Notes under the pieces: model-generated
The model's database searches: none
Told to the model about the DNA's origin: nothing
What the model saw: only the letters and a program-made list of their open reading frames with translations
Origin: Nitrospirota bacterium
GTDB lineage: Bacteria; Nitrospirota; UBA9217
DNA: 64,000 nucleotides
Reading direction: 5' to 3'
Assembly (NCBI GenBank): GCA_963740085.1
Contig: CAVUCU010000004.1
Span: 1-64,000 of the forward strand
Part shown: in pieces, positions 30,330-48,933 of the stretch
Numbering within the stretch: the stretch's first letter is position 1
Layout: each line of letters begins with the position of its first letter
Translations under genes and position numbers: made by a program

Positions 30330-30399
30330 CACGGATTGAAATGCAGGAGAATCTCAGGCCGGGATCTAATCCGTGTTCATCAGGGTGAATCCGCGGTTG
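30307..30399. repeat. 9-mer-periodic inverted repeat (related copies ~28430-28505, 60531-60605)
   Basis: ccacgggtg gacaccgat tgacacggat ... atccgtgtt catcagggt gaatccgcgg. Confidence 0.55.
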
Positions 30400-30440
30400 A
30401 TATATTTTATCCCGGCTTGTCCGGGTCCAGGAGTAAAAAA

Positions 30441-33083
<2,643 letters not shown>

Positions 33084-33193
33084 GCCCCCGATAAATGAGT
33101 GTGCCGCCGGTTTCTGTAATCGATCTCTTTCCCGTGCTCGCACCGGCTTTGAGTTATGTTATAATCAGGTATATCTAAACCAAGGAGGTCAAC

Positions 33194-33514
33194 ATGAATG
33201 TTGCGGATGTCATCAAAAGGGCAATGCTTGCAGGGCTGGGAGCCCAGGAAAAGGCCAGGGAATTGGTCGACGAACTGGTCAAGGCAGGGGAACTTTCCAA
33301 AAGCGAGGCCTCCACTCTGGTGAAGGAGTGGGCGTCCAAGGCCGAGGAAAGCACCAAGGATATGGACCTTAAGGTCAAGGACGCCATCGCGGGTGCATTT
33401 GAAAAGATGAATATCCCGACTCGCGACGACCTTGAAAAGCTGGAAAAGAAGATGCAGGGCATCGCGGCGCGACTTTCGAAACTTGAAGGCGGCGAGGGGA
33501 AAGGCGGGGCATAA
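33194..33514 (+). CDS. Phasin/PHA-granule-associated family protein
   Basis: AMLAGLG..EKARELVDELVKAGELS..EA, KMNIPTRDDL; AAGGAGG RBS. Confidence 0.75.
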   Translation: MNVADVIKRAMLAGLGAQEKARELVDELVKAGELSKSEASTLVKEWASKAEESTKDMDLKVKDAIAGAFEKMNIPTRDDLEKLEKKMQGIAARLSKLEGGEGKGGA

Positions 33515-33579
33515 GTTCGGGGCCCCGGCGCTTCCAAGTCTCTTGTTGGGCGGGAAAACAAGGACCTCTCTGTCAGATC

Positions 33580-33830
33580 AACGGATCGGACAGGCCATCA
33601 CGTCGGCGGGCCGGAATGTGTCCGTTCACCTTGTGGAACGGACGCGCCTGCGATGGTTTCTCGCGCCCGGCAGGCGCACCCTTCTGAAAAATTCCCCCCT
33701 CATCGATCATTGGCCGAGCGTGGGGGAATGTCTCTGGACGATGTTCGAGGAATTTGGGCCCGCACTCATCCGGCCCGGACAGAGCCGGCATCCAGACCGG
33801 ACAAATTACCCCATCGATTATTCATGGAAC
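33580..33830 (+). pseudogene. Eroded N-terminus of an AarF/UbiB (ABC1) kinase
   Basis: GECLWTMFEEFGPALIRPGQS mirrors ERLR..FEELGPTFIKLGQ; expected position after the phasin gene. Confidence 0.55.
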
Positions 33831-34059
33831 AGCCGACCATTAACGAAGCAGGAGCACCGTTCCCTCTCTCTCGGTGCCTTGTCGGAAAGGCTTTTTGCTC
33901 ATGAATCGTCCATGACCCGCACGGGAGTGATGAAAGCCGGGTTTTTCTGCTGTCTGACATCATCCGGTCTTTGGTCTTTTTTTAAAAACGTGCTCCTCTA
34001 TTCTTCTCTCCTTTGGGGGGAGGGGTCATGCGAATGAGCTTGGAGAAAGGCTTTTAAAA

Positions 34060-35157
34060 ATGAAAGTAATGAACAAAGGATTAAAAGTCTTTGTCGTCGC
34101 GTGGGGAACAACGCGAAAGTGGGTAAAGAAGAAGTCGTGGTTGTCATTCCTCGTCGCTACCGCTGCCTTGCTGTTCTGCATCCATTTTTATATCGCTCTC
34201 TTTGTTCCGCCATCCAACGAGAAGGTCTGGAAAGAGATCCATGTGACCGAAGGAATGAGCTTTAAGGCGATCGCCGGGGAACTTAAGAAAGAAGGCATCA
34301 TCCGCTACCGTGGATACTTCGAGATCATCGGCAGGCTGCAAGGTATCAGCCGCAAGGTGCGCGCGGGCTACTACGGGTTGAGCACGAGCATGAGCCTTTG
34401 GGAGGTCCTGGACCAAATTCGAACGGGAAGGATCATTGAATACGAGGTAGTGGTCCCGGAGGGATATAACCTGTACCAGATCGGCTGGACGCTGTCCGGC
34501 ACTCCGCTCATCTCCCAACCTCATGACTTCATCGATCTGGTGAAAAACAAGGCCTATGTCCACTCTCTCGGCATTGACGCTGATACGCTTGAAGGATATC
34601 TGTACCCGGATACGTACTATCTGCCTAAAGGCATCAAACTTGAAGATATTCCCAAAAAGATGGTCCAGCGATTTAAGACGGTGTTCACGGACAGCAAAAG
34701 AAACCGCGCGAAAGAGATGGGGTTCACCGAGCAGCAGATCATTACGCTCGCTTCGATCGTTGAAAAAGAAGCCAAGGTGGATTCGGAGCGGAAGCTCATC
34801 GCTGCGGTATATTATAACCGGTTGAAGCGGGGAATGAGACTCCAGGCGGACCCGACCGCGGTATATGGCACCAAGGCTTGGATCACGAAGGTCACCAAGG
34901 CGGACCTCAAGCGGCGGTCTCCTTATAATACTTACCTCCACAAGGGGCTTCCCCCGGGGCCGATCGCGAACCCCGGCGAGGGCTCAATCCTGGCCGCGCT
35001 CTATCCCGAAAAGGTGGACTATCTTTTCTTTGTCGCTCAGGGAGACGGCAGCCACTATTTCTCAAAGGATTTCAATTCGCATGAGAAGGCCATCGGCAGG
35101 TATCGGTCGAGCATGAAGAAGGCGATGCAGCAGGCGAAACAGAAAGAAAATAGATAG
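34060..35157 (+). CDS. mltG: Endolytic transglycosylase MltG
   Basis: VPEG, LEGYLYPDTY, LASIVEKEA, NRLKRGMRLQADPT, SPYNTY..GLPPGPIANPG. Confidence 0.96.
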   Translation: MKVMNKGLKVFVVAWGTTRKWVKKKSWLSFLVATAALLFCIHFYIALFVPPSNEKVWKEIHVTEGMSFKAIAGELKKEGIIRYRGYFEIIGRLQGISRKVRAGYYGLSTSMSLWEVLDQIRTGRIIEYEVVVPEGYNLYQIGWTLSGTPLISQPHDFIDLVKNKAYVHSLGIDADTLEGYLYPDTYYLPKGIKLEDIPKKMVQRFKTVFTDSKRNRAKEMGFTEQQIITLASIVEKEAKVDSERKLIAAVYYNRLKRGMRLQADPTAVYGTKAWITKVTKADLKRRSPYNTYLHKGLPPGPIANPGEGSILAALYPEKVDYLFFVAQGDGSHYFSKDFNSHEKAIGRYRSSMKKAMQQAKQKENR

Positions 35158-35247
35158 GAGACCATTGGTGCAACACCAGCAAGGGTACAATTCCTCAGAG
35201 TGAGGAACAACGCAAAGGCAGAAACCTTCCGCAAGATATTCCGCAAA

Positions 35248-35691
35248 TCAGCCGTAATTTCCCCGCGCAGTTCCGCCGTCAAACGTATCGCCTGACCTGT
35301 GTTCCCCGCGGCTTCTCAGGAGGGAATACGAGATCGCCGTTACGGCCTTGGCGCGAGCCTCTATAATCGGTCCTTTTGAACATAGGCCTCGATCTTTGAT
35401 CATGGTGACGAGGACTTCCTTGAGGTATTGCGATTGCCAGATGATATCGAAGATGGCCTCGTAGCGGGTGCCGGGCAGATCGAGCGTGGTCACGATGAGA
35501 TTGAGCGTTTCCGCGATATGGATTTTCAGTATATCGTCGGTCGTTGTTGGGGTAAAGACCATGATGTCCGCGCGGTTGAGCGGGTTTTCGCACCGCGGTG
35601 TAAAGACGCCATGAGTATCTTTCATAAGATCTGGAAGAAAGGTTGCCCTATTTTCATCCCTTGACCGGCGCAAGGTGCCGTATAAAAGCAA
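35248..35691 (-). pseudogene. Degenerate receiver-like domain remnant
   Basis: LNRADIMVFT.TT.DDILKIH..E..NLIVT.LDLPG resembles atypical receiver domains; flanks unrecognisable. Confidence 0.35.
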
Positions 35692-36543
35692 TTACTCCCG
35701 CTGCCTCGGATCAAGCGCGTCGCGGATGCCTTCGCCGAGCAGATTGTAGCCGAGCACGGTGATGAGGATAGCAAGGCCGGGGAAGGCGGAAAGCCACCAG
35801 GCGATCTCGATGTTGTCCTTGCCGGAGGAAAGAAGACTGCCCCAGCTTGGGGTGGGGGGCTGAACGCCGAGGCCGAGAAAACTCAGGGCCGACTCGATAA
35901 GGATCGCGCCGCCGATGCCCATGGTGGCGGAGACGAGGATCGGGGAGAGGCCGTTCGGCAGAACATGCTTCATGATGATGCGGCTGTCGGTGGCGCCGAT
36001 GGCGCGCGCGGCGAGCACGAACTCACGCTCTTTGAGCGAAATGAACTCAGCGCGGATGAGCCGGGCCGGTTCCATCCAGCTGGTAAGCCCGATCACGATC
36101 ATAATGTTGATGATGCTCGGCTCCAGGATCGCGATCACGGCCAGCACCAGAAATATCGTAGGGATGCTCAGCATGATGTCAACGGCCCGCATGATCGCAC
36201 TATCGATGGCTCCACCATAGAAACCTGCAATGGCGCCGAGAATGATGCCGATGATCGTAGAGATCCCGACTGCCACGAAACCCACCTCAAGCGAGATCCT
36301 TCCGCCCCAGAGCATGCGCGAGAACACGTCCCTGCCCAGATCATCCGTCCCCAGGAGATGGGAAAAGCTGGGGCCGATCAGGATGTTCTTGATGTCGATG
36401 GTTGACGGATTATAGGGTGCGATCAGCGGCGCGCAGATGGACAGAATGAAGACGAGCAGCACGAGCATCCCGCCGATGACGGCGAACTTGTTCTTCATGA
36501 GGTAATGAAGTGTCTGCGATGTGAAGGATTCTGATTTGCCCAT
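35692..36543 (-). CDS. Peptide/nickel ABC transporter permease (OppC/DppC type)
   Basis: HLLGTDDLGRDVFSR, EREFVLAARAIGA..RII.KHVLPN, LSFLGLGVQPPTPSWG. Confidence 0.95.
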   Translation of the reverse strand: MGKSESFTSQTLHYLMKNKFAVIGGMLVLLVFILSICAPLIAPYNPSTIDIKNILIGPSFSHLLGTDDLGRDVFSRMLWGGRISLEVGFVAVGISTIIGIILGAIAGFYGGAIDSAIMRAVDIMLSIPTIFLVLAVIAILEPSIINIMIVIGLTSWMEPARLIRAEFISLKEREFVLAARAIGATDSRIIMKHVLPNGLSPILVSATMGIGGAILIESALSFLGLGVQPPTPSWGSLLSSGKDNIEIAWWLSAFPGLAILITVLGYNLLGEGIRDALDPRQRE

Positions 36544-36559
36544 TTGAAATAATTTCTGC

Positions 36560-36626
36560 CACCCCGAACGAAGTGAAGGGTGTGGTTCGATCAAATTAAG
36601 GATTCTTCGCTTCGCTCAGAACGACA
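36560..36626. repeat. Palindromic intergenic element
   Basis: caccccgaacgaagtgaagg ... gattcttcgcttcgctcagaacgaca. Confidence 0.5.
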
Positions 36627-36660
36627 AACCAAAAATTCACGAGTCTTACTGGCGGCCCTC

Positions 36661-37632
36661 TTATTTCAATCTCACCCTCGGATCGGTAAAGGCATATGCG
36701 ATGTCCGCCAGGAAGTTCCCGAGCAAGGTCAGGAACGCCACGGGCACCAGTATCCCCATGACGAGGTTATAGTCCCGCGACAAGACCGACTGGAACATAA
36801 GCTGACCCATGCCGGGAATGCCGAAGACCTGTTCAATGATCACACTGCCGCCGATGATGCCGGGGAGTGACAGGCCGAGGATGGTAATAACCGGCATGAG
36901 CGCATTCCTGAGCGCGTGTTTGTAAATGACCACGCGCTCGGAAAGCCCCTTGGCCCTGGCTGTGCGAATGTAATCCTGCCTCATGACCTCGAGCATGTTA
37001 TTCCGGACATAACGCGAGAATCCGGCCAGACCGCCGAACGACAGCACGAAGACCGGCAGGATCAGATGACGGAACCTGTCCGCGAGCCTGCCCCAGTCCG
37101 AGAGTCCCGTCACATCCAGGCTCTGGATGCCGGATATCGGAAGCACGCCCCACTGCACACCAAAGAGATAGATGAGCAGAAGAGCCAGCCAGAACGAAGG
37201 CGTGGAAAATCCTATGAAGACGAACATGGTCGTGAACCGGTCAAGGAGCGAGTATTGCCGGGTGGCGGACATAATTCCGATGGGTAGAGCGATCAAAAGG
37301 ACCAGTCCGAGCGAGAGCAGGTTTATCGTGAGCGTGATCGGGAGGCGTTCAAGGATCTTGTCCTTGACCTTGCGGCCATCGGCAAAGGCCTCGCCGAAAT
37401 CAAGGGTCACGAACTTAGTGAGCCACGTGGCGTATTGCTTGTAAAAGGGCTGGTCAGCTCCGTACAGCTTGCGGAGCCGCTCACGAGCTTCGGCGGACGC
37501 CTTTGCTGAAAACTCCATCTGCGCCTCGGCGGGACCGCCCGGGGCGAGTCGCATGACGCCAAAACTCAGCAGGGTGATGCCGAGGAGGATGGGAATCATC
37601 AGGAGCGCGCGTTTTATGACGTAGAAGAGCAT
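36661..37632 (-). CDS. Peptide/nickel ABC transporter permease (OppB/DppB type)
   Basis: LAPGGP, STPSFWLAL, QDYIRTARAKGL..VIYKHALRNA, GSVIIEQVFGIPGMG. Confidence 0.95.
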   Translation of the reverse strand: MLFYVIKRALLMIPILLGITLLSFGVMRLAPGGPAEAQMEFSAKASAEARERLRKLYGADQPFYKQYATWLTKFVTLDFGEAFADGRKVKDKILERLPITLTINLLSLGLVLLIALPIGIMSATRQYSLLDRFTTMFVFIGFSTPSFWLALLLIYLFGVQWGVLPISGIQSLDVTGLSDWGRLADRFRHLILPVFVLSFGGLAGFSRYVRNNMLEVMRQDYIRTARAKGLSERVVIYKHALRNALMPVITILGLSLPGIIGGSVIIEQVFGIPGMGQLMFQSVLSRDYNLVMGILVPVAFLTLLGNFLADIAYAFTDPRVRLK

Positions 37633-37641
37633 CGGTTGGCT

Positions 37642-37896
37642 TTATTCCGTGACCTTGTATACGAGATCGAAGGGCTTTGCGTGCTGGGAAAGCTTGATGC
37701 CGGTAAACTGGCCGCGGATGGCCTTCTGGACCGGTTGGTGGTCGAACTCCAAGCCATCGATCTTCTGAGTGAAGTCGGTGTTGTTTCCCTTGAGGTGAAT
37801 GGTATCACCGATCGCGAGATCGCCGAAATCAAGCTTGACCGCCGCAACGGAAGTTTTTTCAAAAAACCGTATAACCGACCCGATCCGCTCTTCCAT
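37642..37896 (-). CDS. Small EF-Tu domain-2-like beta-barrel protein
   Basis: EERIGSV..FF....VAAVKL..GDLAIGDTIHLKG..TDFTQKI. Confidence 0.7.
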   Translation of the reverse strand: MEERIGSVIRFFEKTSVAAVKLDFGDLAIGDTIHLKGNNTDFTQKIDGLEFDHQPVQKAIRGQFTGIKLSQHAKPFDLVYKVTE

Positions 37897-38054
37897 AGGC
37901 GTAATCATAGTATAAAACTCATGCCATTTCAAGGGAAAAGGGCACGGGGGGAAAAAGGAGGTCAGAATAGAGACAGAAAGAAGGCGGATGGATGCAACCT
38001 TTTTCGTTCATCGCCTGCTCGTCTGCCACCAGTGGTCCCGACGGGACATAGCGC

Positions 38055-38083
38055 TTGACAATGCGGAGGAGTGTGAGTATTAT
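38055..38083 (+). promoter_or_regulatory. Sigma70 promoter of tRNA-Pro/Arg
   Basis: TTGACA-17-TATTAT. Confidence 0.7.
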
Positions 38084-38123
38084 ATGGCCTACCAGTCAGG
38101 GTATAAAGGGAGCTTTTGTACCG

Positions 38124-38200
<77 letters not shown>

Positions 38201-38278
38201 TTGTAATTGGAAATTGAAGGTTGGAAATCGTAAATCTGAAATTTTCAATCTGTAATTTTCAATGGAGCGTAGCGACAT

Positions 38279-38355
38279 GCGCCTGTAGCTCAGATGGATA
38301 GAGCAACAGCCTTCTAAGCTGTGGGCCAGGGGTTCGATTCCCTTCAGGCGCACCA
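38279..38355 (+). tRNA. tRNA-Arg(TCT)
   Basis: acagc-ct-TCT-aa-gctgt, GTTCGATTC, CCA. Confidence 0.97.
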
Positions 38356-38449
38356 ATAAAAGAACAGACGTGCGCAAGCGCGTGAAGGAAAATTGAGAAG
38401 GTCTCCTTTCAGACGTGAATAGAATCAAATGCGGTATACGGATTGTTTG

Positions 38450-38478
38450 TTGACAAATCAAACGTGGCACTATAAAAT
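38450..38478 (+). promoter_or_regulatory. Sigma70 promoter of tRNA-His
   Basis: TTGACA-17-TAAAAT. Confidence 0.65.
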
Positions 38479-38523
38479 TAATTGGTTTCTCAATCCGCAA
38501 TCCGCTTTCTGAAAAAATAACAT

Positions 38524-38600
38524 GGTGGGCGTAGCTCAGTTGGTAGAGCTCCAGGTTGTGGCCCTGGTGGCCGCGGGTTCAAGCCCCGTCGCTCACCCCA
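38524..38600 (+). tRNA. tRNA-His(GTG)
   Basis: Encoded G-1, ccagg-tt-GTG-gc-cctgg, GTTCAAG, CCA. Confidence 0.97.
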
Positions 38601-38662
38601 AATTTCGATCGTAGAGACGGTCACGTCGGCCGTCTCTACAGCTTTTATAAGGTGTTTTTGAC

Positions 38663-38739
<77 letters not shown>

Positions 38740-38920
38740 GAATCACCTTGCAAGATCAGCACCCGGCAAAGAACGAGAAGGGAACTGCTTTCCTGCGGCC
38801 AGAGGGGTGCAGGGGAGATGCTCCGCTGCGGTTCGGGGGAGAAACCAGAGGGGGCAGGCCTCCTCTGGGGAGCCCTTCATGGGCGACGGCTGCACGGTTC
38901 GACTCCTGCCGGGCGCACCA
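38740..38920 (+). repeat. tRNA-linked element copy 1: 88-bp core (38802-38889) plus duplicated tRNA-Arg(TCG) 3' end (38896-38920)
   Basis: 38896-38920 is identical to 38715-38739; core matches 39179-39266. Confidence 0.85.
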
Positions 38921-39034
38921 GGATACCGCAAAGGAACAAACGACGGACGAGAGACGAGGGATGAGAGACGCATGCGCGTCCATCGTCCTAGCGCGCAAAG
39001 AGAGCGGTCGTCTATCGTCCAGCGAGTTTTTATC

Positions 39035-39111
39035 GCGCCTGTAGCTCAGCTGGATAGAGCGTTGGCCTCCGAAGCCAAAGGTCGTGGGTCCGACTCCCGC
39101 CAGGCGCACCA
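39035..39111 (+). tRNA. tRNA-Arg(CCG) with atypical T-loop
   Basis: ttggc-ct-CCG-aa-gccaa; T-loop reads GTCCGA rather than GTTCGA; CCA. Confidence 0.9.
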
Positions 39112-39294
39112 GTTTAATAATCAATGACAGGCAATATGCGCGGCAAAATGGGTCGGCGAAATAGAGGGTCCACGACCTGAGGGTTTCAGGGGAAGCATTC
39201 CCCTGAGTTTCGGGGGAGAAACCAGAGGGGGCAGGCCCCCTTTGGGGAGCCCTTCATGGGCGACGGAGTGGGTCCGACTCCCGCCAGGCGCACC
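39112..39294 (+). repeat. tRNA-linked element copy 2: 88-bp core (39179-39266) plus duplicated tRNA-Arg(CCG) 3' end (39268-39294)
   Basis: gtgggtccgactcccgccaggcgcacc repeated from 39084-39110. Confidence 0.85.
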
Positions 39295-39411
39295 GTCAAA
39301 AAAGAGGAGACAAAAAAGGATTAACGAGGGACGAGAGATGAGGAATGTAATTCGTTTTTCGTCTTAGTGAGCGAAGCGAACGGTCGTCAATCGTCCCATC
39401 ATTTTTTTATC

Positions 39412-39440
39412 TTGCATCAGGCGTTAAAGATAAGTATAAT
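39412..39440 (+). promoter_or_regulatory. Sigma70 promoter of tRNA-Lys/Leu
   Basis: TTGCAT-17-TATAAT. Confidence 0.7.
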
Positions 39441-39475
39441 AACCGCTCTTTGTATCTGATACTCTCATCGCGTAT

Positions 39476-39551
<76 letters not shown>

Positions 39552-39632
39552 TATTAAAACTCAGGGAGCAGTGAGCAGCAGGCAGCGGATCACGAAGGCT
39601 GCTTTACGTTCACTGCTTTCTTTGTTCCTGAA

Positions 39633-39715
39633 GCGAGAGTGGCGGAACTGGCAGACGCGCCAGACTTAGGATCTGGTGGGCGACCATGGGGGTTCAAGTC
39701 CCCCCTCTCGCACCA
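39633..39715 (+). tRNA. tRNA-Leu(TAG)
   Basis: ccaga-ct-TAG-ga-tctgg, variable arm, GTTCAAGTC, CCA. Confidence 0.95.
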
Positions 39716-39828
39716 TGATAGTTCAGAGTTCGGAGTTCAAAGTTCGGAGGGAGATCGTAACGCACCTTGCGCCATGAACCTTGAAGACCATACAATCTCA
39801 ATCTACTCTTATTACAAGGTGGTATCCC

Positions 39829-41115
39829 ATGAAATCAGTGATAGAAGAAATAAATCCGGTAAAGAAAAAGATCAATATCGAAATTGAGCACGAGTCCGTG
39901 GACAAAGAGATGGACAAGGCGATCAAGGACGTTGCCAAAAAGGCAAAGATACACGGTTTCCGTCCCGGTAAGGCACCGAAAAATATCGTGGAAAAACATT
40001 ATGGCGAAGAAGTCCGGTCCGAGGTCACGAACAGGCTCATCTCGGATTCGTACCTCATGGCGCTCCGGGAGCACAATCTCAGCCCCGTGGATATGCCGAA
40101 GATCGAGAACATAACGACGCTTGCAAAGGGCTCTTCGCTGAGCTTTACCGCCATCGTGGAAGTACGCCCGAGCATAACGCTTGGCACCTACGACGGCATT
40201 GAAATCAAGGAACGGGACCTTGCGGTGACCGACGAAGAATTGAATCAGACGCTTGACCGTCTCCGTGAGATGTATGCGCAGCTTGAAGTTGTCGAGGGGC
40301 AGGCTCTCGCGAAGGATCACACGGCGATCATCGATTTCGAGGGGTTCCATGACGGAAAGACCATCGAAGGCGCCAAGGCCACGGACCATATGCTGTCCAT
40401 CGGATCGGGCAATCTGATCCCGGGGTTTGAGGAGCAGCTTATCGGCATGAAGAAGAACGAGACGCGGGATATCAAGGTCACGTTCCCGGCGGATTATACC
40501 AATAAGGAAATAGCGGGCAAGGAAGCGCGCTTTACGGTAACGCTCAAAGAGATCAAGCAGAAAGTCCTCCCCGAGCTGAATGATGAATTCGCGAAGGATA
40601 CCGGCGGCAACAAGACGGTTGAAGAGCTGAGGGCGCGGATCAAGGAAGATCTCCAGGCACGAAAGCGCGACGAGCAGGGGTCTGCCCAGCGCGAGGAATT
40701 GATGTCGAAATTGGTGGACGCTCATGAGTTCGATGTCCCGCAGGGCATGGTGGAACATGAACTGCAGACCATGGCGAGGCAGCAGGCCACCCGCTTCGCC
40801 CGGCAGGGCATGGACCTCAAGTCCTTTGATGCAAAGAAGTTCATGGAGAAGAACCGGGACCTGGCCGTGAAACGGGTCAAGGGAATACTGCTGCTCGAAG
40901 AGATAGCTGAAAAAGAGAAGGTCGACGTTACCGACCAGGAATTATCCGCGTCCATCGCGGCGATGGCGAAGGAAGCGGGACAGACCTCGGACGCCGTCAG
41001 GAAATATTATGAGTCTCAGGACGGGGGCCTTGATAACCTGCGCGCCTCACTGGTCCAGGAAAAGACTTTCGGTCTCTTGATTTCCCGTGCAAAGAAGGTT
41101 TATAATAATCAGTAA
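39829..41115 (+). CDS. tig: Trigger factor
   Basis: GFRPGKAP ribosome-binding loop, [23 protein letters not shown]. Confidence 0.97.
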
Positions 41116-41219
41116 GAAGGATCAAAGAATTCAGGCTGAGAGGGCATAACCTCACTGAGAGACCCGGGAATTTATCTTTGGTGCTTTCGTTTTTCAGTGA
41201 CAACCGCGAAGGAGAATAC

Positions 41220-41825
41220 ATGTCATTGATCCCCATGGTAATAGAACAGACAAGCCGGGGCGAGCGGGCGTACGATATTTACTCCCGGTTGTTGAAGGAC
41301 CGGATCATCTTCCTCGGCACGCCTATCGACGACATCGTGGCGAACACCGTGATCGCGCAGCTCCTTTTCCTTGAAGCCGATGACCCGGACAAGGACATCT
41401 ATATTTACATCAATTCTCCGGGAGGCATTGTGACCGCCGGGCTTGCTATCTACGACACCATGAATTACATCAAGTCTCCGGTCTCGACCATTTGCATCGG
41501 ACAGGCCGCGAGCATGGGTGCGCTGCTTCTGGCATCGGGCGCCAAGGGCAAGAGATTCTCTTTGCCGCACGCCCGTATCATGATCCACCAGCCCATGGGC
41601 GGGTTCCAGGGACAGGCCACGGACATCGAGATCCATGCCAAGGAAATGCTCAAGATGAAGGACACGCTGAACAAGATCCTGGCGAACCATACGGGGCAGC
41701 CGATCGAGAAGATCCATGAGGATACTGACCGGGATTATTTCATGTCCGGTGAAGACGCGAAGGCATATGGTCTTGTTGATGAGGTCATTGCCAAGAAGGT
41801 GCCCGCACTGGTGAAGGAGAAGTGA
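41220..41825 (+). CDS. clpP: Clp protease proteolytic subunit
   Basis: [39 protein letters not shown]. Confidence 0.99.
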
Positions 41826-41829
41826 CCCC

Positions 41830-43072
<1,243 letters not shown>

Positions 43073-43074
<2 letters not shown>

Positions 43075-43160
43075 TCAGAAGCAGGAGTCAGGAGCCAGTA
43101 TTCAGGAGTCAGAAGGAATATTTTTATTCTGACTCCCGGCTCCTGGCTTCTGACTCCTGA
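43073..43160. repeat. AGGAGTC-type heptamer inverted repeat (also ~45770-45865, 55625-55700)
   Basis: aggagtc aggagcc agtattc aggagtc aga ... tctgact cccggct cctggct tctgact cct. Confidence 0.75.
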
Positions 43161-43169
43161 TCTCTCATC

Positions 43170-43778
43170 ATGAAAATACTCTCAGCCGAATTCGTCATCA
43201 GCGCCGTCGGACCGAAGCAGTTCCCGCAGGACGGCAAACCCCAGATCGCCATTGCCGGCCGTTCGAATGTCGGGAAATCATCGATCATCAACTCTCTGCT
43301 TCACCGGAAGAACCTGGTCAAGACGAGCCAGACGCCCGGCAAGACCCAGCTTATCAACTTCTTCGTCATCAATGAATCCTTCTACTTTGTGGACCTGCCG
43401 GGATACGGTTATGCCCGCGTCCCCCATGCGGTGACCGATGCCTGGGCGCCGATGATCGAGGGGTATCTGAAAAACTCGCCGCGTTTGTCCGCCGTCGTCG
43501 TTCTCCTGGACTGCAGGAGAGAACTCGATGAGCGTGACGTCCAATTGATCGAATGGCTCCGGCAGTACGATATCCCGGTGATATACGCACTGACCAAGAC
43601 CGACAAGCTGAACCGGCAGGAGACCGACCGTGCCCGACGGAGCATGAGCGGGGCACTGGGGACCGCTTATGACCTGGTCCTCACCTCCGCCAAAAGCGGG
43701 CAGGGAATCAAAGAACTCTGGTCCGCAATAATAAAAAAATTAAAAGAACCGAGTGTCGGAAATCAGGGGTCAGGGTAA
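43170..43778 (+). CDS. engB: Ribosome biogenesis GTPase YihA/EngB
   Basis: AGRSNVGKSS, TPGKTQLINFF, VDLPGYGYA, TKTDKL. Confidence 0.97.
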   Translation: MKILSAEFVISAVGPKQFPQDGKPQIAIAGRSNVGKSSIINSLLHRKNLVKTSQTPGKTQLINFFVINESFYFVDLPGYGYARVPHAVTDAWAPMIEGYLKNSPRLSAVVVLLDCRRELDERDVQLIEWLRQYDIPVIYALTKTDKLNRQETDRARRSMSGALGTAYDLVLTSAKSGQGIKELWSAIIKKLKEPSVGNQGSG

Positions 43779-44201
43779 CACTATCGATCGTCTTTTTTCT
43801 TATTTTCTGATTTCGATTTCGGTTCCTGACTTCCCGGCTTTCAGCCCCTCCCCATTTCATTTGTGAATCCCCACAGCGTAAAACCCTCCTTTGTCATTTT
43901 CGAAAATACCTGGTATTGCCTTAGATGCCACCATTGCCAATTGGCCGAGACCCCGCCAGTGTGGGGGTATCCCTGGATTTGTTAAGCAGAACCCAAATAG
44001 AGTATAAGCCTTATAACGCACTAAGGGTGCAAAGTCCTCGTTGAAAAATGTAGTTTTCAAATGCCGCTCTTGCGGTGACTTTCAGAAAGAAGTCCAGAAT
44101 ATACCATAAAATAACACGTACACGCAGAACTTTTCTGTATTGAGGCCGATGATTATATGGTCTTGTCATAGACTCTTAGGAGGGCACGGCCGTCCAATAA
44201 C

Positions 44202-45383
44202 TTATCCAAGGGTGAGATATCCCTCCGGGGCAAGACTGGTTGCCAGCATCACCATGTTGATATCGCGATGCTCCCTCCAGCTGCCGGCCTGTCTGTTTGC
44301 AGGTTCAAGCCAAAAAGTCTCAATAACCTCACCAAGCGGTGTATATCGCATCAAGTGTTCGGTTTGCGAATGCAGGCGGCGCTTCATCTTGAAATCGCGA
44401 GGAGTTCGCCTGATCAGGCCCTGCAGCTTCTCAATTGAATGTAATCCTATCGCCAAACCAAGTTCCCGAAATGCAAGCCGCTCGGTGGCAGGAAGCATCA
44501 GGGGATTCTTTCCCCTTGTGTAGGCTTGCAAGCCGATCAGTGAAGAATCCAGGAGAACATCCAGAAGGGCGGCTTGATCAAACCCTTCGATTATGATCAA
44601 TTGAGCCAATTTGCATGCAGTGCCCAAGAGTTCGCCGATTCCAAGGGGGTCATCGGTTACCCAACTTTTCCCTTCACCTATGCCGGCCATGTCTTTAATC
44701 TCTGCGCTGAGGTCGAATTCCGCGGTTTTATTGGGGACTTTTACTGCAGTAGACTGGAGCTGGAGACAGGTGATGAAGCCATCAAGAGGATCGTGCTGCC
44801 CCATCGAGGCTACAAGCGGATGCGAGAGGTCAATGCTCATTTTCCAGTACATGCGTTTCCGGTCGCCGGACGAAGGTACATAGACGAATTTGTCGTGCGC
44901 GGTTTTCGCAAGTTCGATCGCCCATTTGTTGTAGATCGGATCTCCCGTGACCCGGCTTGATCTATTGAGAGCGTGCATCCACTTCGTCAGGTAATGATAA
45001 TATTGTCCGTCTCGATCCCATTCCAACTGTTCATCATAGGGATCACCGGGACCGCGCTCGTTCATCCCCTTGCCGATCCGTAACCCTCCGCGTGTAGGGT
45101 GCGATCTGCCTTCCTGTTCAGAGAGACCGCTTATCCAGCCGGTTCTTGGATCATCTTCACGGTGTCGTCCGAGTATGAAATGAACCTGATCGACGAGGTG
45201 CAACGCGAGCTTTTTGAATTGTTCATCACGTGTCCGAAGATAAAGTCCCAGGAAGTTGCAAACGGCAAACGCGTCTGTCCACAAGTATCGCCGTGGCGTG
45301 GTACTGTCCGATAGCAGCCCGGTTAGATTGGCAAACTCGCTCATGAGATTCAAGGCTATAGAACTGGAGGCGTTTTGCTCCAT
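44202..45383 (-). CDS. Conserved hypothetical protein (possible alpha/alpha-toroid sugar-enzyme fold)
   Basis: ~393-aa ORF with RRYLWTDAFAVCNFL, GGLRIGK, DGQYYHYLTKWMHAL, RMYWKMSIDLS, LAFRELGLAIGL, HRDINMVMLATSL. Confidence 0.7.
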   Translation of the reverse strand: MEQNASSSIALNLMSEFANLTGLLSDSTTPRRYLWTDAFAVCNFLGLYLRTRDEQFKKLALHLVDQVHFILGRHREDDPRTGWISGLSEQEGRSHPTRGGLRIGKGMNERGPGDPYDEQLEWDRDGQYYHYLTKWMHALNRSSRVTGDPIYNKWAIELAKTAHDKFVYVPSSGDRKRMYWKMSIDLSHPLVASMGQHDPLDGFITCLQLQSTAVKVPNKTAEFDLSAEIKDMAGIGEGKSWVTDDPLGIGELLGTACKLAQLIIIEGFDQAALLDVLLDSSLIGLQAYTRGKNPLMLPATERLAFRELGLAIGLHSIEKLQGLIRRTPRDFKMKRRLHSQTEHLMRYTPLGEVIETFWLEPANRQAGSWREHRDINMVMLATSLAPEGYLTLG

Positions 45384-45460
45384 GTTTCCCCTAACGCTCT
45401 TCATGATTATGATTATATCACTTGTTCCAGAGATTGATTTTTACGAGCGGCAGGGTACGG

Positions 45461-45765
45461 GGGATACGGGCGCCGATGATCGAGGGGTATCTGAAAAACT
45501 CGCCGCATTTGTCCACCGTCGTCGTTCTCCTGGACTGCAGGAGAGAACTCGATGAGCGTGACGTCCAATTGATCGAATGGCTCCGGCAGTACGATATCCC
45601 GGAGATCTATGCACTGACCAGGAACGACAAGCTTAATCGGCAGGAGACCGAGCGAGCCCGACGGAGTACCAGCGCAGGGCTGGGAATCTCTGACGAACTG
45701 GTGCTGACCTCGGCAAAGAGTGTGCTGGGGATCAAGGAACTATGGGGGGTAATAATAAAAACAAT
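45461..45765 (+). pseudogene. Duplicated 3' half of engB
   Basis: 45468-45602 matches 43444-43578 with two mismatches seen, then diverges but stays homologous to the C-terminus; no GTPase N-terminus. Confidence 0.85.
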
Positions 45766-46073
45766 TGAAGGAGCCAGGAGTCAGAATTCAGGAGTCAGGA
45801 GAATAATTGTAATAGATTTTTTATCTTTGCTGCTGCTTTCCGTCTTTTATTTCCTGACTTCTGACGCCCCCTTTTTTAAAGGGGCTTTCATGGAAATTTT
45901 GTCGACCTCACCGGTTCGCTGTTCTGGGCTACTGCGTTCAGTCTTATCTTCTTTGCATCGATCGGCACGACTTTCGGCTTTCTCGCTGAAAATCAGATAG
46001 TTGTAACCGATCGGGTCCGGACCTAACCTCTGTATGTTATTCCATATTTTAATTTGCTTCAATTCCATTTTCA

Positions 46074-46102
46074 TTGACAAGCGAAATGTCCTCTGATATA
46101 CT
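46074..46102 (+). promoter_or_regulatory. Sigma70 promoter of the cytochrome gene (long leader)
   Basis: TTGACA-17-TATACT with an extended -10 TG. Confidence 0.6.
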
Positions 46103-46369
46103 CTTGCTGTTTCTTCTTTCATTAAGGCGATGAAGAATGCCTGACCGCATATTTTCATTCACTTTTTCACTATCGCGAGTATACTATAGACCACCCGTTT
46201 TATGCATTTCGGACATCGTACGACAGCCTCAGAAACAGTGTGTTAATGGAATGCAGTTTGATGAATGAAAGGAGGTGGCATCAACAACATTCCCGCTAAA
46301 TTTTTTTTTAGATAGTTTGCGACAGGCTCTAGGCGTGAGAAAAAAAAATTACAGGAGGTAACAAAGGTT

Positions 46370-48933
46370 ATGAAGATTTATAAGCACAAATATGTTTTTT
46401 TGGTATTAGCTTTACTATTCATCCTGCCGTTGATGTTCGTTGGATGTTCGGGCAGTGATGGATCGGACGGCGCGAACGGCGCGGACGGCACGAACGGTAC
46501 GAACGGTACGAATGGCACGACAGCAAAAGCCAATGAACAGTGCCTTCTCTGTCACGGCGCCGGTGGCATAGCGGCCATCGCAGTTATGCACACGGTTTCA
46601 CCGCTTTCCTCCACCACAGCACCGCTTACCGTGGATGGTGCAAATGTGGATATCAACGAGCAGAGTGCCGCACAGCTGGCCGGGCTTACCATGGTAGGCA
46701 CGATTGATCTCGTCACAATCGCGACCGTAACTCCGGTTGTCAATTTCACGGTGAAAGATTCCGCAGGCCACGGTATAATCGGCCTCAATAACACTCAGTT
46801 TGCATATGCAATAGCCAGACTTATGCCGGCTACTGCCACGAATAAGGAGTATTGGGAATCCTACATGGTGACCTCCGCCACCTCACGCCCCGGCACCGAT
46901 TCCGAAGTTGCCAATAATGCGGGTCTGGTGGATCACCTCGACGGCACCTATACCTATACCTTCAACAAAGACCTCACTACCGTCCCCGGTATTGCCAGCT
47001 ATGCGACGACTTCGAACCTGACGCACCGCATAGTGGTCCAGATTTCAGGTACCGTTAATGGAGGCTCGCTCAATGACAGGGCGATAGACATTGTTCAGGA
47101 CTTCGTGCCGACAGGCTTGTCCGTTGATTGGGCCACAGCGAAGGCCGCAGCGACGTTGCATAACATCGTTACGGCGGATGCCTGTAATACATGCCACTAT
47201 AAGATCGGTACTACCACCCCGCACGGTGGTCGTGTTGACTCGCAATACTGCGTGGTATGCCATACGTATCAGCGTGCTAACGGTCGTTCCGCATCGGCCC
47301 CGGATTCTACCGGTGCAATGACCGGCAGCACCTACCTCGTCACCGGCCAGGTGGACGTTGGTAGTGAAACGACATCGACCGCTGGAGGCTTTGCGACCGG
47401 CGAATTCGTCTCCATGGTCCATAAGCTCCACATGGGCGAGGGCCAAAATACGCATGGGACCGTGCAGGGACTGAAACTTACCGGTTGGAACTATGGCGGC
47501 GTCCTGTTCAACGAAGTCACCTATCCCCAGGATGCTCGCAATTGCAAAAAGTGCCATAATGGTACCCAGGGCGATAACTGGATGAACACTCCCAGCCGGA
47601 AGGCTTGCGGTTCCTGCCATGACAACGTAAGCTTTGCAGCGTCTGTTCCGGTAGGGTTCGTTGCCCATTCAGGTGGGGCCTATGCCAATGATTCAGGCTG
47701 CGGTGTCTGTCATCCTGCCACCGGCGGTCTGGCGGGTATTGCCGACAAACACGTTCCTGTCATTTCGCCCGATCCGGCCGACCCGCGGCTCGGCGGCACC
47801 AACAGCCATACCAACGGGTCGTATGTTGCGGCGACAGGCGCACTTCCGACCGGAGCCGCTGGAATCACGTACGTTATCAGCAGCGTGACCAAGACGGCCA
47901 ATCATCCGTCCATCACATTCGCGCTCAAGAGTAGCTTGAGCGGCACGATGGTATTCTCTACCCCGACCTCGACGACCAGCGAACTGATGCCCAACTTCGC
48001 GGATCTCCGAGCGTATACTTTGTATGGGCAGAGCCCCAGGACGGCATCACCGCACCTTCTGATTTCAACAAGTCCGCCAGCGCCTACATCAAGGATGTCT
48101 GGAACGGTGCCGTGACTACCTCCACCATGACCGGCCCCGACGGCAGCGGCTTCTACACTCTCACCATGACCGGCACGACCATCCCCTCTACTGCGGTGAT
48201 GCTCACCGGAGGAGTCGGCTATACCTACGGCTCAGGGTCGCCCGAACTCGTCCAGACGAACCTGTCAGCCTATCCGTACACTGCGGCAACCAAAGTAGGC
48301 GGTCTTGCTGTTCCTCCGCCAAACGTATGGAAGGTTGCAGCAACCTACACCGGCCGCCGTGTTGCCGTGGACACTGCAAAGTGTAACGCGTGCCACGGTG
48401 CACTCGGGGTAGCTCCCACGTTCCATGACGGACAGCGAAACAATGCACCGACCTGCTCGTTCTGTCACAATCCGAACAGAACAAGCAGTGGCTGGTCCGC
48501 GAACGCCAGCACCTTTGTTCACGCAATCCACGGAGCAAGCAAGCGGACAGTCCCGTTCGTGTGGCATGCAACCAGCGAGACGGATAACTTCGGGAAAATT
48601 ACCTACCCGAACCTGCTGAACAACTGCTTGGCCTGCCACGTGGCTGGTTACTACGATTTCTCAGCTGCGACCTCCCTGGCTCAGGAGCCGAATCGCCTGT
48701 TCGAGACCGTCGCAACCGGTACACTCGCTTCGAGCTCAACTGGCTCGTTCGCGTATTCGCCCTATATCACGCAGGATGTGGATTACGGCAGCGCGGGCTC
48801 GGCTAACAACCTGGTGACGTCACCAACCGCCGCCGTGTGTTTCGCCTGCCACGACACCAGCGCGGCAAGGTCTCACATGGAGATAAATGGCGCGGCGATC
48901 TACCAGACGCGGAGCACTGCGATCCAGCCGTAA
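46370..48933 (+). CDS. OmcA/MtrC-family multiheme outer-surface lipoprotein cytochrome (1-nt frameshift near 48000)
   Basis: Lipobox FVGC, Gly-X-X repeat, DGTYTYTF; 10 CxxCH (CLLCH, CNTCH, CVVCH, CKKCH, CGSCH, CGVCH, CNACH, CSFCH, CLACH, CFACH); MVHKLHMG, YPQDARNC, PSRKACGSCH, ARSHMEING. Confidence 0.9.

Follow-up and report, generated by a model that had tools for sequence, protein, structure and literature searches.

Transfer RNA (tRNA)-linked repeats (TLRs) were first described in Escherichia coli in 1978 and have no known function, according to the portion of a published account from which this description is drawn (PMC8144298). E. coli K-12 carries 22 TLR units at ten loci, and a TLR is defined by an exact match of 18-19 bp between its own 3' end and that of the tRNA or ribosomal RNA (rRNA) upstream. 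A functional claim made in 1991 for the tyrT unit was withdrawn in 1994. Three units of rRNA operons (rrA/B/F) are located between two terminators and depend on read-through for their synthesis; their RNA undergoes processing and, in vitro, binds both Hfq and CsrA. For these, the authors propose that the repeat is an RNase E processing signal (same portion of PMC8144298). Here we describe two blocks in a 64,000-nt stretch of Nitrospirota DNA (GenBank assembly GCA_963740085.1, contig CAVUCU010000004.1, positions 1 to 64,000; hereafter, the window), each situated behind a tRNA-Arg gene. It is probable that each block is a unit of a tRNA-linked repeat from a separate and previously uncatalogued Nitrospirota family, i.e., a co-transcribed RNA with tRNA-like 3' processing.

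The E. coli tyrT-tyrV locus, with its 178-bp repeats, served as a positive control, and its four units scored 133-138 bits with the Rfam RtT model (RF00391; gathering score 45 bits). In each of these units, ten bases of the tRNA-Tyr T-loop/T-stem 3' strand recur in inverted form, followed by ~88 nt of core and then by a direct repeat of the final 19 nt of the tRNA; the Rfam consensus structure pairs the inverted segment with the direct copy. The annotated small RNA rttR spans +8 to +178 downstream of tyrV and so has its 3' end at the CCA of the copy. For rttR, as for rrA/B/F, transcription together with the operon and processing into a discrete RNA have been shown.

The window units compared with the E. 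coli repeats

ARAGORN identified a tRNA cluster on the + strand of the window in the order Pro-Arg(TCT)-His-Arg(TCG)-Arg(CCG)-Lys-Leu. The blocks follow tRNA-Arg(TCG) (181 nt, 38740-38920) and tRNA-Arg(CCG) (183 nt, 39112-39294). Each consists of a variable spacer, an antisense arm, a three-hairpin core and a sense copy of the host tRNA 3' end, in that order and all on the + strand. In unit 1, the host tRNA-Arg(TCG) gene with its encoded CCA (38663..38739; ARAGORN, and 71.3 bits with the Rfam tRNA model) is followed by a non-conserved spacer (38740..38791). Antisense arm 1 (38792..38800), delineated by sequence and duplex energies, is the exact reverse complement of host positions 38708-38716 in the variable loop and T-stem 5' strand. 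Core 1 (38802..38889) is delineated by covariation and scores 136.8 bits with the covariance model R1; the window units belong to class I, the class with tRNA-Arg hosts. Core 1 is composed of hairpins H1 (38809-38829), H2 (38845-38868) and H3 (38872-38884), with a G-rich joint (38830-38844) between the first two. Sense copy 1 (38890..38920), aligned to the host, repeats the ~31 nt at its 3' end, from the variable loop through the T arm, in which an additional C is present at 38895, to the acceptor 3' strand and ACCA. In unit 2, the host tRNA-Arg(CCG) gene (39035..39111; ARAGORN and Rfam tRNA) precedes a non-conserved spacer (39112..39165) and antisense arm 2 (39166..39178), which complements host positions 39079-39091 at nine contiguous positions plus two of four others, again judged by sequence and duplex energies. 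Core 2 (39179..39266; R1 score 139.4 bits, and covariation) has H1 at 39186-39206, the joint at 39207-39221, H2 at 39222-39245 and H3 at 39249-39261. Sense copy 2 (39267..39294), aligned to the host, repeats the last 27 nt (T arm and acceptor 3' strand) and ends in CCG, not CCA.

The two cores are 86% identical across 88 nt. Between the units, identity is 83% over the tRNA, 59% over the spacer, 50% over the arm, 77% over the first 30 nt of the core, 97% over its last 58 nt (56/58), 74% over the tRNA-end copy and 70% over the trailer that follows. The sole two differences in the last 58 nt of the cores are G-C/G-U changes within H2. The copy of the TCG unit matches its own tRNA at 28 of 32 aligned positions with one extra C, and that of the CCG unit matches at 27 of 27, after which CCG replaces CCA; the sense copy is therefore host-specific, although it is flanked by the homogenised core end and the similar trailer. 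Across the entire 3.46-Mb genome, BLAST and covariance-model searches found only these two full-length cores, both linked to tRNA genes, and one distant relative, while the remaining five BLAST matches to the core were 14-25 nt long with E > 0.9. An Rfam search of the window with E up to 10 left the element unmatched, and the best non-tRNA matches fell far under their cut-offs.

An earlier reading, made by a model from the letters of the window (the sequence-only reading), is borne out in much of this. The blocks, their 88-bp cores and coordinates, the tRNA-end duplicates specific to each host and the two G-C/G-U differences were all recovered, as were its compensatory H1, H2 stem and third hairpin, which agree with the covariation analysis below. 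Its point that plain tandem duplication fails to explain the host-specific tails stands, and the comparisons of the core with the genome and with Rfam that it had proposed gave the results just stated. The spacer that it termed unrelated is so over most of its length, but the last 9-13 nt are antisense to the host tRNA.

The Nitrospirota units are located where the TLR definition places a unit, immediately downstream of a gene in a tRNA or rRNA operon and on the same strand, and their 3' end repeats the 3' end of that gene. The identity extends over 22 nt in 25 of 37 class I units and over 18 nt in 21 of 35 units of class II, the class with Leu, Ala and Val hosts. As in the E. coli set, in the portion of the account at hand (PMC8144298), there are one to several units per locus (one to five in the definition; tandem copies here), some units lie between two terminators and would be reached by read-through, and no function is known. 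Unlike that set, the Nitrospirota family occurs in another phylum and has an unrelated sequence, its copy is 27-32 nt long rather than the 18-19 nt given there, and its arm is a near-perfect antisense of the host, 9-22 nt long and co-varying with it.

The layout of RtT is identical: inverted copy first, then ~88 nt of core and a direct tRNA-end copy with CCA, in units of ~170-180 nt that form tandem arrays. Its outer helix joins the inverted segment and direct copy and leaves a single-stranded CCA tail, and the Nitrospirota arm-copy duplex, for its part, beats that of shuffled arms. The core fold is different, however, and the arm of the window's class targets the variable loop and T-stem 5' strand, not the T-stem 3' strand. 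Searches with RF00391 of the window (E up to 10), of seven Nitrospirota loci (E up to 1) and of the whole genome (E up to 0.01) gave no match. Prompted by a 10-mer that both families have at the same place, homology was examined reciprocally with R2, the covariance model built from class II, and was rejected: the four E. coli units (L124) scored only 3.7-8.7 bits, with E of 0.2-4, which is not significant. The Nitrospirota units fit the published TLR definition and are not members of Rfam RtT. Immediately 5' of the tRNA-end copy, class II units (A6) and the E. coli units have GCGAAGCGCG and then TGAG in common; given the negative model test, this may be due to chance or convergence. A CsrA sponge, considered by analogy with rrA/B/F and from the GGA-containing H1 loop, was rejected because CsrA (PF02599) was found in one of the 64 family genomes and in neither the remaining 63 nor, among them, the window's own.

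Distribution, host tRNA genes and core structure

A BLAST sample of 60 relatives comprised 36 other genomes of the same family and 24 from other families. The core was found in 16 of the former and in none of the 24 latter. Among the 29 copies identified, 28 lie behind a tRNA-Arg gene, on the same strand and at a distance of 44-75 nt, and the 29th is a tandem second copy; by anticodon, seven belong to Arg(TCG), seven to CCG (plus the tandem second copy), eight to TCT and six to ACG. A generic repeat scattered without linkage to tRNA genes, which the sequence-only reading had named as the case that would overturn it, does not fit this linkage. An exact core 22-mer has 21 occurrences in 185,579 species genomes. 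Nineteen of them are ~60-105 nt behind a tRNA-Arg gene, and the other two, with no tRNA nearby, are taken as chance; the carriers are Nitrospirota/Nitrospiraceae metagenome-assembled genomes (MAGs).

With R1, 48 of the 64 family genomes (18 of 19 genera) proved to carry the element, and the second class, scoring 27-60 bits, emerged. Of 51 such weaker matches examined, 38 are situated 25-58 nt behind a tRNA gene, namely Leu(TAA) (6), Leu(CAA) (14), Ala(GGC) (12), Ala(CGC) (5) and Val(GAC) (1). One more is a second copy behind Arg(TCT), and 12 have no intact tRNA in the 260 nt upstream, several of these being tandem second copies or lying behind a displaced tRNA 3' half. R2 in turn recovered both window copies (49.9 and 26.1 bits), and classes I and II are therefore homologous. 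In a sample of the phylum, the element was present in three Nitrospirota families (f1, 19/27 genomes; f9, 3/18; f17, 1/7) and in 0 of 98 genomes from 19 further families. Hosts in f9 and f17 are Gly(CCC), Gly(GCC) (a tandem array), Ser(GGA) and Ser(CGA), and two complete genomes of sister families carry Gly- and Ser-linked units. This brings the host anticodon kinds to 13 (four Arg, two Leu, two Ala, Val, two Gly and two Ser). The element is specific to tRNA 3' ends and not to tRNA-Arg. Restriction to tRNA-Arg was rejected because the same core occurs behind Leu, Ala, Val, Gly and Ser tRNA genes, a breadth of hosts that the sequence-only reading had missed; linkage to tRNA genes as such holds.

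Every tRNA-adjacent copy shares the strand of its tRNA and follows the gene at a distance of 12-75 nt. In 75 of these, the model hit, arm included, begins 12-59 nt past the tRNA. Longer versions carrying an integrase or other genes, which had been anticipated as a possibility, were not found among these 75 copies, and no genes lie between tRNA and core. Tandem copies occur at seven loci (L013, L079, L082, L091, L110, L113 and L130).

All three hairpins of the core are supported, and H1 and H2 show strong covariation. When 27 Arg-linked copies were aligned with MAFFT, pairing extended to 96.4% of cells and six pairs changed on both sides. An alignment fitted to the model, with 89 distinct copies drawn from all classes, has base pairing in 97.5% of cells versus 82.4% in shuffled alignments; in it, 18 of 23 pairs have changed on both sides, and the covariation score is 0.392 versus 0.157 for shuffled alignments and at most 0.103 for slid partners. 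G-U pairs are frequent on the tRNA strand only, which fits an RNA read from that strand. The joints between hairpins are G-rich and almost invariant. RNAalifold gave no clean outer stem when flanks were included; the flanks were analysed per sequence because indels misalign them in an alignment.

A T arm and an acceptor 3' strand ending in CCA are features that the element shares with transfer-messenger RNA (tmRNA) and other tRNA-like domains, but unlike them it lacks an acceptor 5' strand of its own. In only two of 29 copies did the best spacer 7-mer complement exceed 95% of shuffles, and no Rfam tRNA or tmRNA model matched the element or the core. An acceptor stem of its own, as in a tmRNA-like or tRNA-like RNA, was rejected, since 27 of 29 spacers were no better than shuffles. 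ARAGORN called a 97-nt tRNA-Ala(GGC) across the core and copy of one unit (L013:1522-1618, in the oriented copy), which is taken as a false call; such units are open to mis-annotation as tRNA genes or pseudogenes.

Sense copy, antisense arm and expression

The sense copy, 27-32 nt long in this family, is closely matched to the host. In class I, the tail is 96% identical to the host over 22 nt and ends in CCA in 34 of 37 copies; in class II, it is 94% identical over 18 nt and ends in CCA in 33 of 35. Among copies with the same host, by comparison, spacers have a median identity of 55% and cores of 86%. In the window, the last 22 nt of unit 1 equal those of its host and unit 2 deviates only at the final base. 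An extra base in the T-stem 5' strand of the copy occurs in 23 of 37 class I copies (14 C, 8 U and 1 G), including the TCG unit of the window (38895) and excluding its CCG unit, and weakens the T arm of the copy and the arm-copy stem alike. Three units behind tRNA-Leu(CAA) or its remnant (L086, L098 and L119) have a tail that fits the host T-stem 3' strand with a foreign acceptor part (…CTACGCGCACCA in place of …CCGCCGGCACCA); these tails may record an exchange of sequence among units with different hosts.

In class I, the arm is the antisense of the host's variable loop, T-stem 5' strand and first part of the T loop; in class II, the complemented stretch consists of the T loop, the T-stem 3' strand and as many as six bases of the acceptor. 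Duplex energies in the window are -21.4 kcal/mol with the host and -15.4 kcal/mol with the copy for arm 1, and -22.9 and -13.4 kcal/mol, respectively, for arm 2. Means for class I are -21.7 (arm-host), -15.4 (arm-copy) and -11.2 kcal/mol (shuffled arm-copy), and for class II -29.5, -18.8 and -11.3 kcal/mol. The arm suits the variant of its own host over other variants of the same isoacceptor in 49 of 62 comparisons, in which related genomes are not independent, and in three units (L015, L018 and L032) it sides with the copy against the host.

In the window, promoter-like sites were predicted at 38055-38083 and 38450-38478, before tRNA-Pro and tRNA-His, and the promoter/terminator scan of the locus yielded none upstream of tRNA-Arg(TCG). 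Each unit is followed by a terminator-like trailer on the + strand: trailer 1 (38921..39034) is a long hairpin (-44 kcal/mol) followed by TTTTTATC and shares 80 of 114 positions with trailer 2 (39295..39412), predicted by folding as a long hairpin (-32.5 kcal/mol) with a T run and likewise ending in TTTTTATC. Trailer 1 reaches the base before tRNA-Arg(CCG), and there is therefore no promoter space at that point. Sequencing runs were searched with sampled words, and none held half of them. A 322-nt metatranscriptome contig of a relative (26 differences and four gaps) begins at the first base of tRNA-Arg(TCG), crosses spacer, element and copy, and stops at 38961, and a second metatranscriptome contains a 128-nt contig over 39181-39294.

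By analogy with the E. coli units, each unit would be transcribed together with its tRNA, by read-through where a terminator intervenes, and the cut that matures the tRNA 3' end would also create the 5' end of the element. The sense copy would then recruit the tRNA 3'-maturation machinery, with endonucleolytic cleavage just past the CCA, trimming and CCA repair producing a tRNA-like 3' end. The antisense arm could close the core by pairing with the copy or, in the precursor, could instead pair with the better-fitting strand of the host tRNA. The expected product is a stable RNA of ~135-180 nt made in step with the tRNA, in which the conserved core would be the working part and would bind a partner. 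The strand, the covariation, the kept tail and the rttR-like layout support the suggestion, already made in the sequence-only reading, of a co-transcribed structured RNA with a tRNA-like 3' end.

Several observations weigh against this account. The arm pairs better with the host tRNA than with the copy in 31 of 37 class I and 33 of 35 class II units, and a closing stem alone cannot account for that better fit. The class I arm-copy stem leaves a 22-nt tail and so forms no mimic of an acceptor helix, and the spacer, as described above, supplies no acceptor 5' strand. A terminator-like 12-bp hairpin with a T run (38611-38639) is located directly after tRNA-His, 14 nt before tRNA-Arg(TCG), and most class II copies have a terminator between tRNA and element, so that transcription would depend on read-through. 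The metatranscriptome contigs are a weak hint only, as contigs of RNA libraries may derive from DNA and reveal no transcript ends. The host tailoring could come from gene conversion rather than selection, and the E. coli counterparts are without known function in the portion of PMC8144298 cited above.

The better fit of the arm to the host raises an alternative, which we regard as unlikely, that the unit is a cis-acting strand-exchange module. The arm would invade the T-arm strand of the host, and the copy would provide a second 3' strand for the tRNA body. Two states would then be open to the locus, a normal tRNA with a free element or one long chimeric tRNA-like RNA, and switching between them would tune or check the maturation of that tRNA. 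Beyond the fit itself, this idea draws on the preference of the arm for its own host variant and on the extra base of the copy. In minimum-energy folds of tRNA plus element, moreover, the acceptor 5' strand pairs with the distal copy in 32 of 37 cases. The arm is paired with the host in only 15 of the same 37 folds, however, and the swapped fold is favoured scarcely less by shuffled arms (-6.3 kcal/mol) than by real ones (-7.6 kcal/mol), being lower in 33/36 and 34/36, respectively. As the preference survives arm shuffling, the folds are not evidence of design. A tRNA also folds co-transcriptionally, when the arm has not yet been made, and a match between arm and host can arise from common origin or gene conversion as well, the related genomes not being independent.

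Returning to the TLR interpretation, a broader version of it is conceivable, if doubtful: TLRs, at least from Nitrospirota to E. coli, could form a general class of 'tRNA-dedicated' RNAs that work through their flanks, with a deliberately imperfect sense copy restraining a near-perfect antisense arm directed at one strand of the host's T-arm region. If so, such an RNA could exchange strands with its own tRNA, the precursor or 3' fragments, in cis or in trans, in order to sense, sequester or proof-read that tRNA. The Nitrospirota family supplies what E. coli lacked, namely ~90 diverged copies with 13 anticodon kinds in three families of a distant phylum, together with clear covariation, near-invariant joint nucleotides and an antisense arm that tracks its host base for base. 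A family this diverged makes the architecture testable through mutation of arm, copy or core, and it argues for a selected layout rather than an accident of the tyrT locus.

Descent, mobility and neighbouring features

In a tree of 36 cores, nine of 11 TCG-linked copies, from six genera, group in a single clade (98/95 support), and this points to vertical descent. The tree does not resolve the other hosts, and in it the two copies of the window genome are not sisters. The last 58 nt of the window cores share states not seen in other genomes, suggesting local conversion between the units. Occupancy is patchy within a genus, and different tRNA-Arg genes are used in G000, G001, G002, G006 and G008. 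The units are flanked by direct repeats of 27-32 nt, which make loss easy, and the patchiness therefore requires no mobility.

The sequence-only reading had also offered a miniature tRNA-targeting element, and a non-autonomous integrative element homing to tRNA 3' ends with a recombinase encoded elsewhere is the form that this would take. On this view, integration at an attachment site would have left the tRNA-end copy as its scar, and the hairpin of arm and copy would be a recombination site in folded form. Direct repeats of a tRNA 3' end are a hallmark of integration and are found downstream of intact tRNA genes with tRNA-integrating islands and phages. Tandem arrays, the patchy occupancy even inside a genus, the use of at least 13 tRNA kinds with re-tailored arms, and the few tails that mismatch the host acceptor (L086, L098 and L119) could be read in the same way. 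Such islands and phages differ, though, in that here there is no integrase, only ~150 nt separate the repeats, the core is structured and copies are conserved as orthologues. The TCG copies are orthologous across genera while those of one genome are not sisters, the genome has just two full copies and a distant one, the 75 tRNA-adjacent copies are of constant size, and the tail remains tRNA-like while spacers are saturated. No long version came to light, and the search for a recombinase (Pfam, 12 largest open reading frames within 30-48 kb, 30336-48115) found none, in line with the absence of a nearby integrase in the sequence-only reading; loss through recombination of the direct repeats explains the patchiness equally well. 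We therefore consider a mobile element very unlikely.

We give still less credence to the idea that the units are a functionless by-product, i.e., a decaying partial tandem tRNA duplication whose likeness to tRNA is kept only by gene conversion. The two window units do repeat at a period of 372 nt, their tRNA, core and trailer being alike, the derived states common to the core ends fit inter-unit conversion, and some copies (L020, L032, L081 and L023_tct) are clearly in decay. Against such a history, compensatory changes preserve H1 and H2 across three families, the joint strands are almost invariant, the core is not tRNA-like (no Rfam tRNA match) and the site is kept across genera although the flanking direct repeats favour deletion. 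Units of this kind look like tRNA pseudogenes or the scars of integration, and genomic-island annotation can be misled by them.

The open reading frames covered by the recombinase search encode housekeeping functions instead: alaS, yceG, ABC permeases, tig, clpP, clpX, a GTPase and a multihaem cytochrome. Contigs from a DNA sequencing run match 38755-38905 and 39200-39392 without a difference; this run may be the source sample and therefore lends no independent support to the assembly. A contig of a MAG titled Betaproteobacteria (L044 and L045), which may be mis-binned, has the same Pro-Arg-His-Arg-Arg-Lys cluster with two units.

The third unit of the window genome (L131; G000:C4:315361-315473, - strand) belongs to class II and is located on the same contig, outside the window. 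It is located behind a displaced tRNA-Ala(GGC) 3' half whose first bases belong to the anticodon loop, and an intact tRNA-Ala(GGC) is present at C4:356162-356237 (-), which together indicate an insertion of ~40.7 kb (a genomic island) into that tRNA gene. This true island looks quite unlike the window units. The same displaced-tRNA arrangement is seen at L085, L090, L114 and L118. A repeated motif of the type TGTGCTAAAATTGTGCTAAAA lies beside displaced tRNA-Ala halves (L083, L085, L114, L118 and L131), and these motifs may be candidate arm-type binding sites of the island's integrase.

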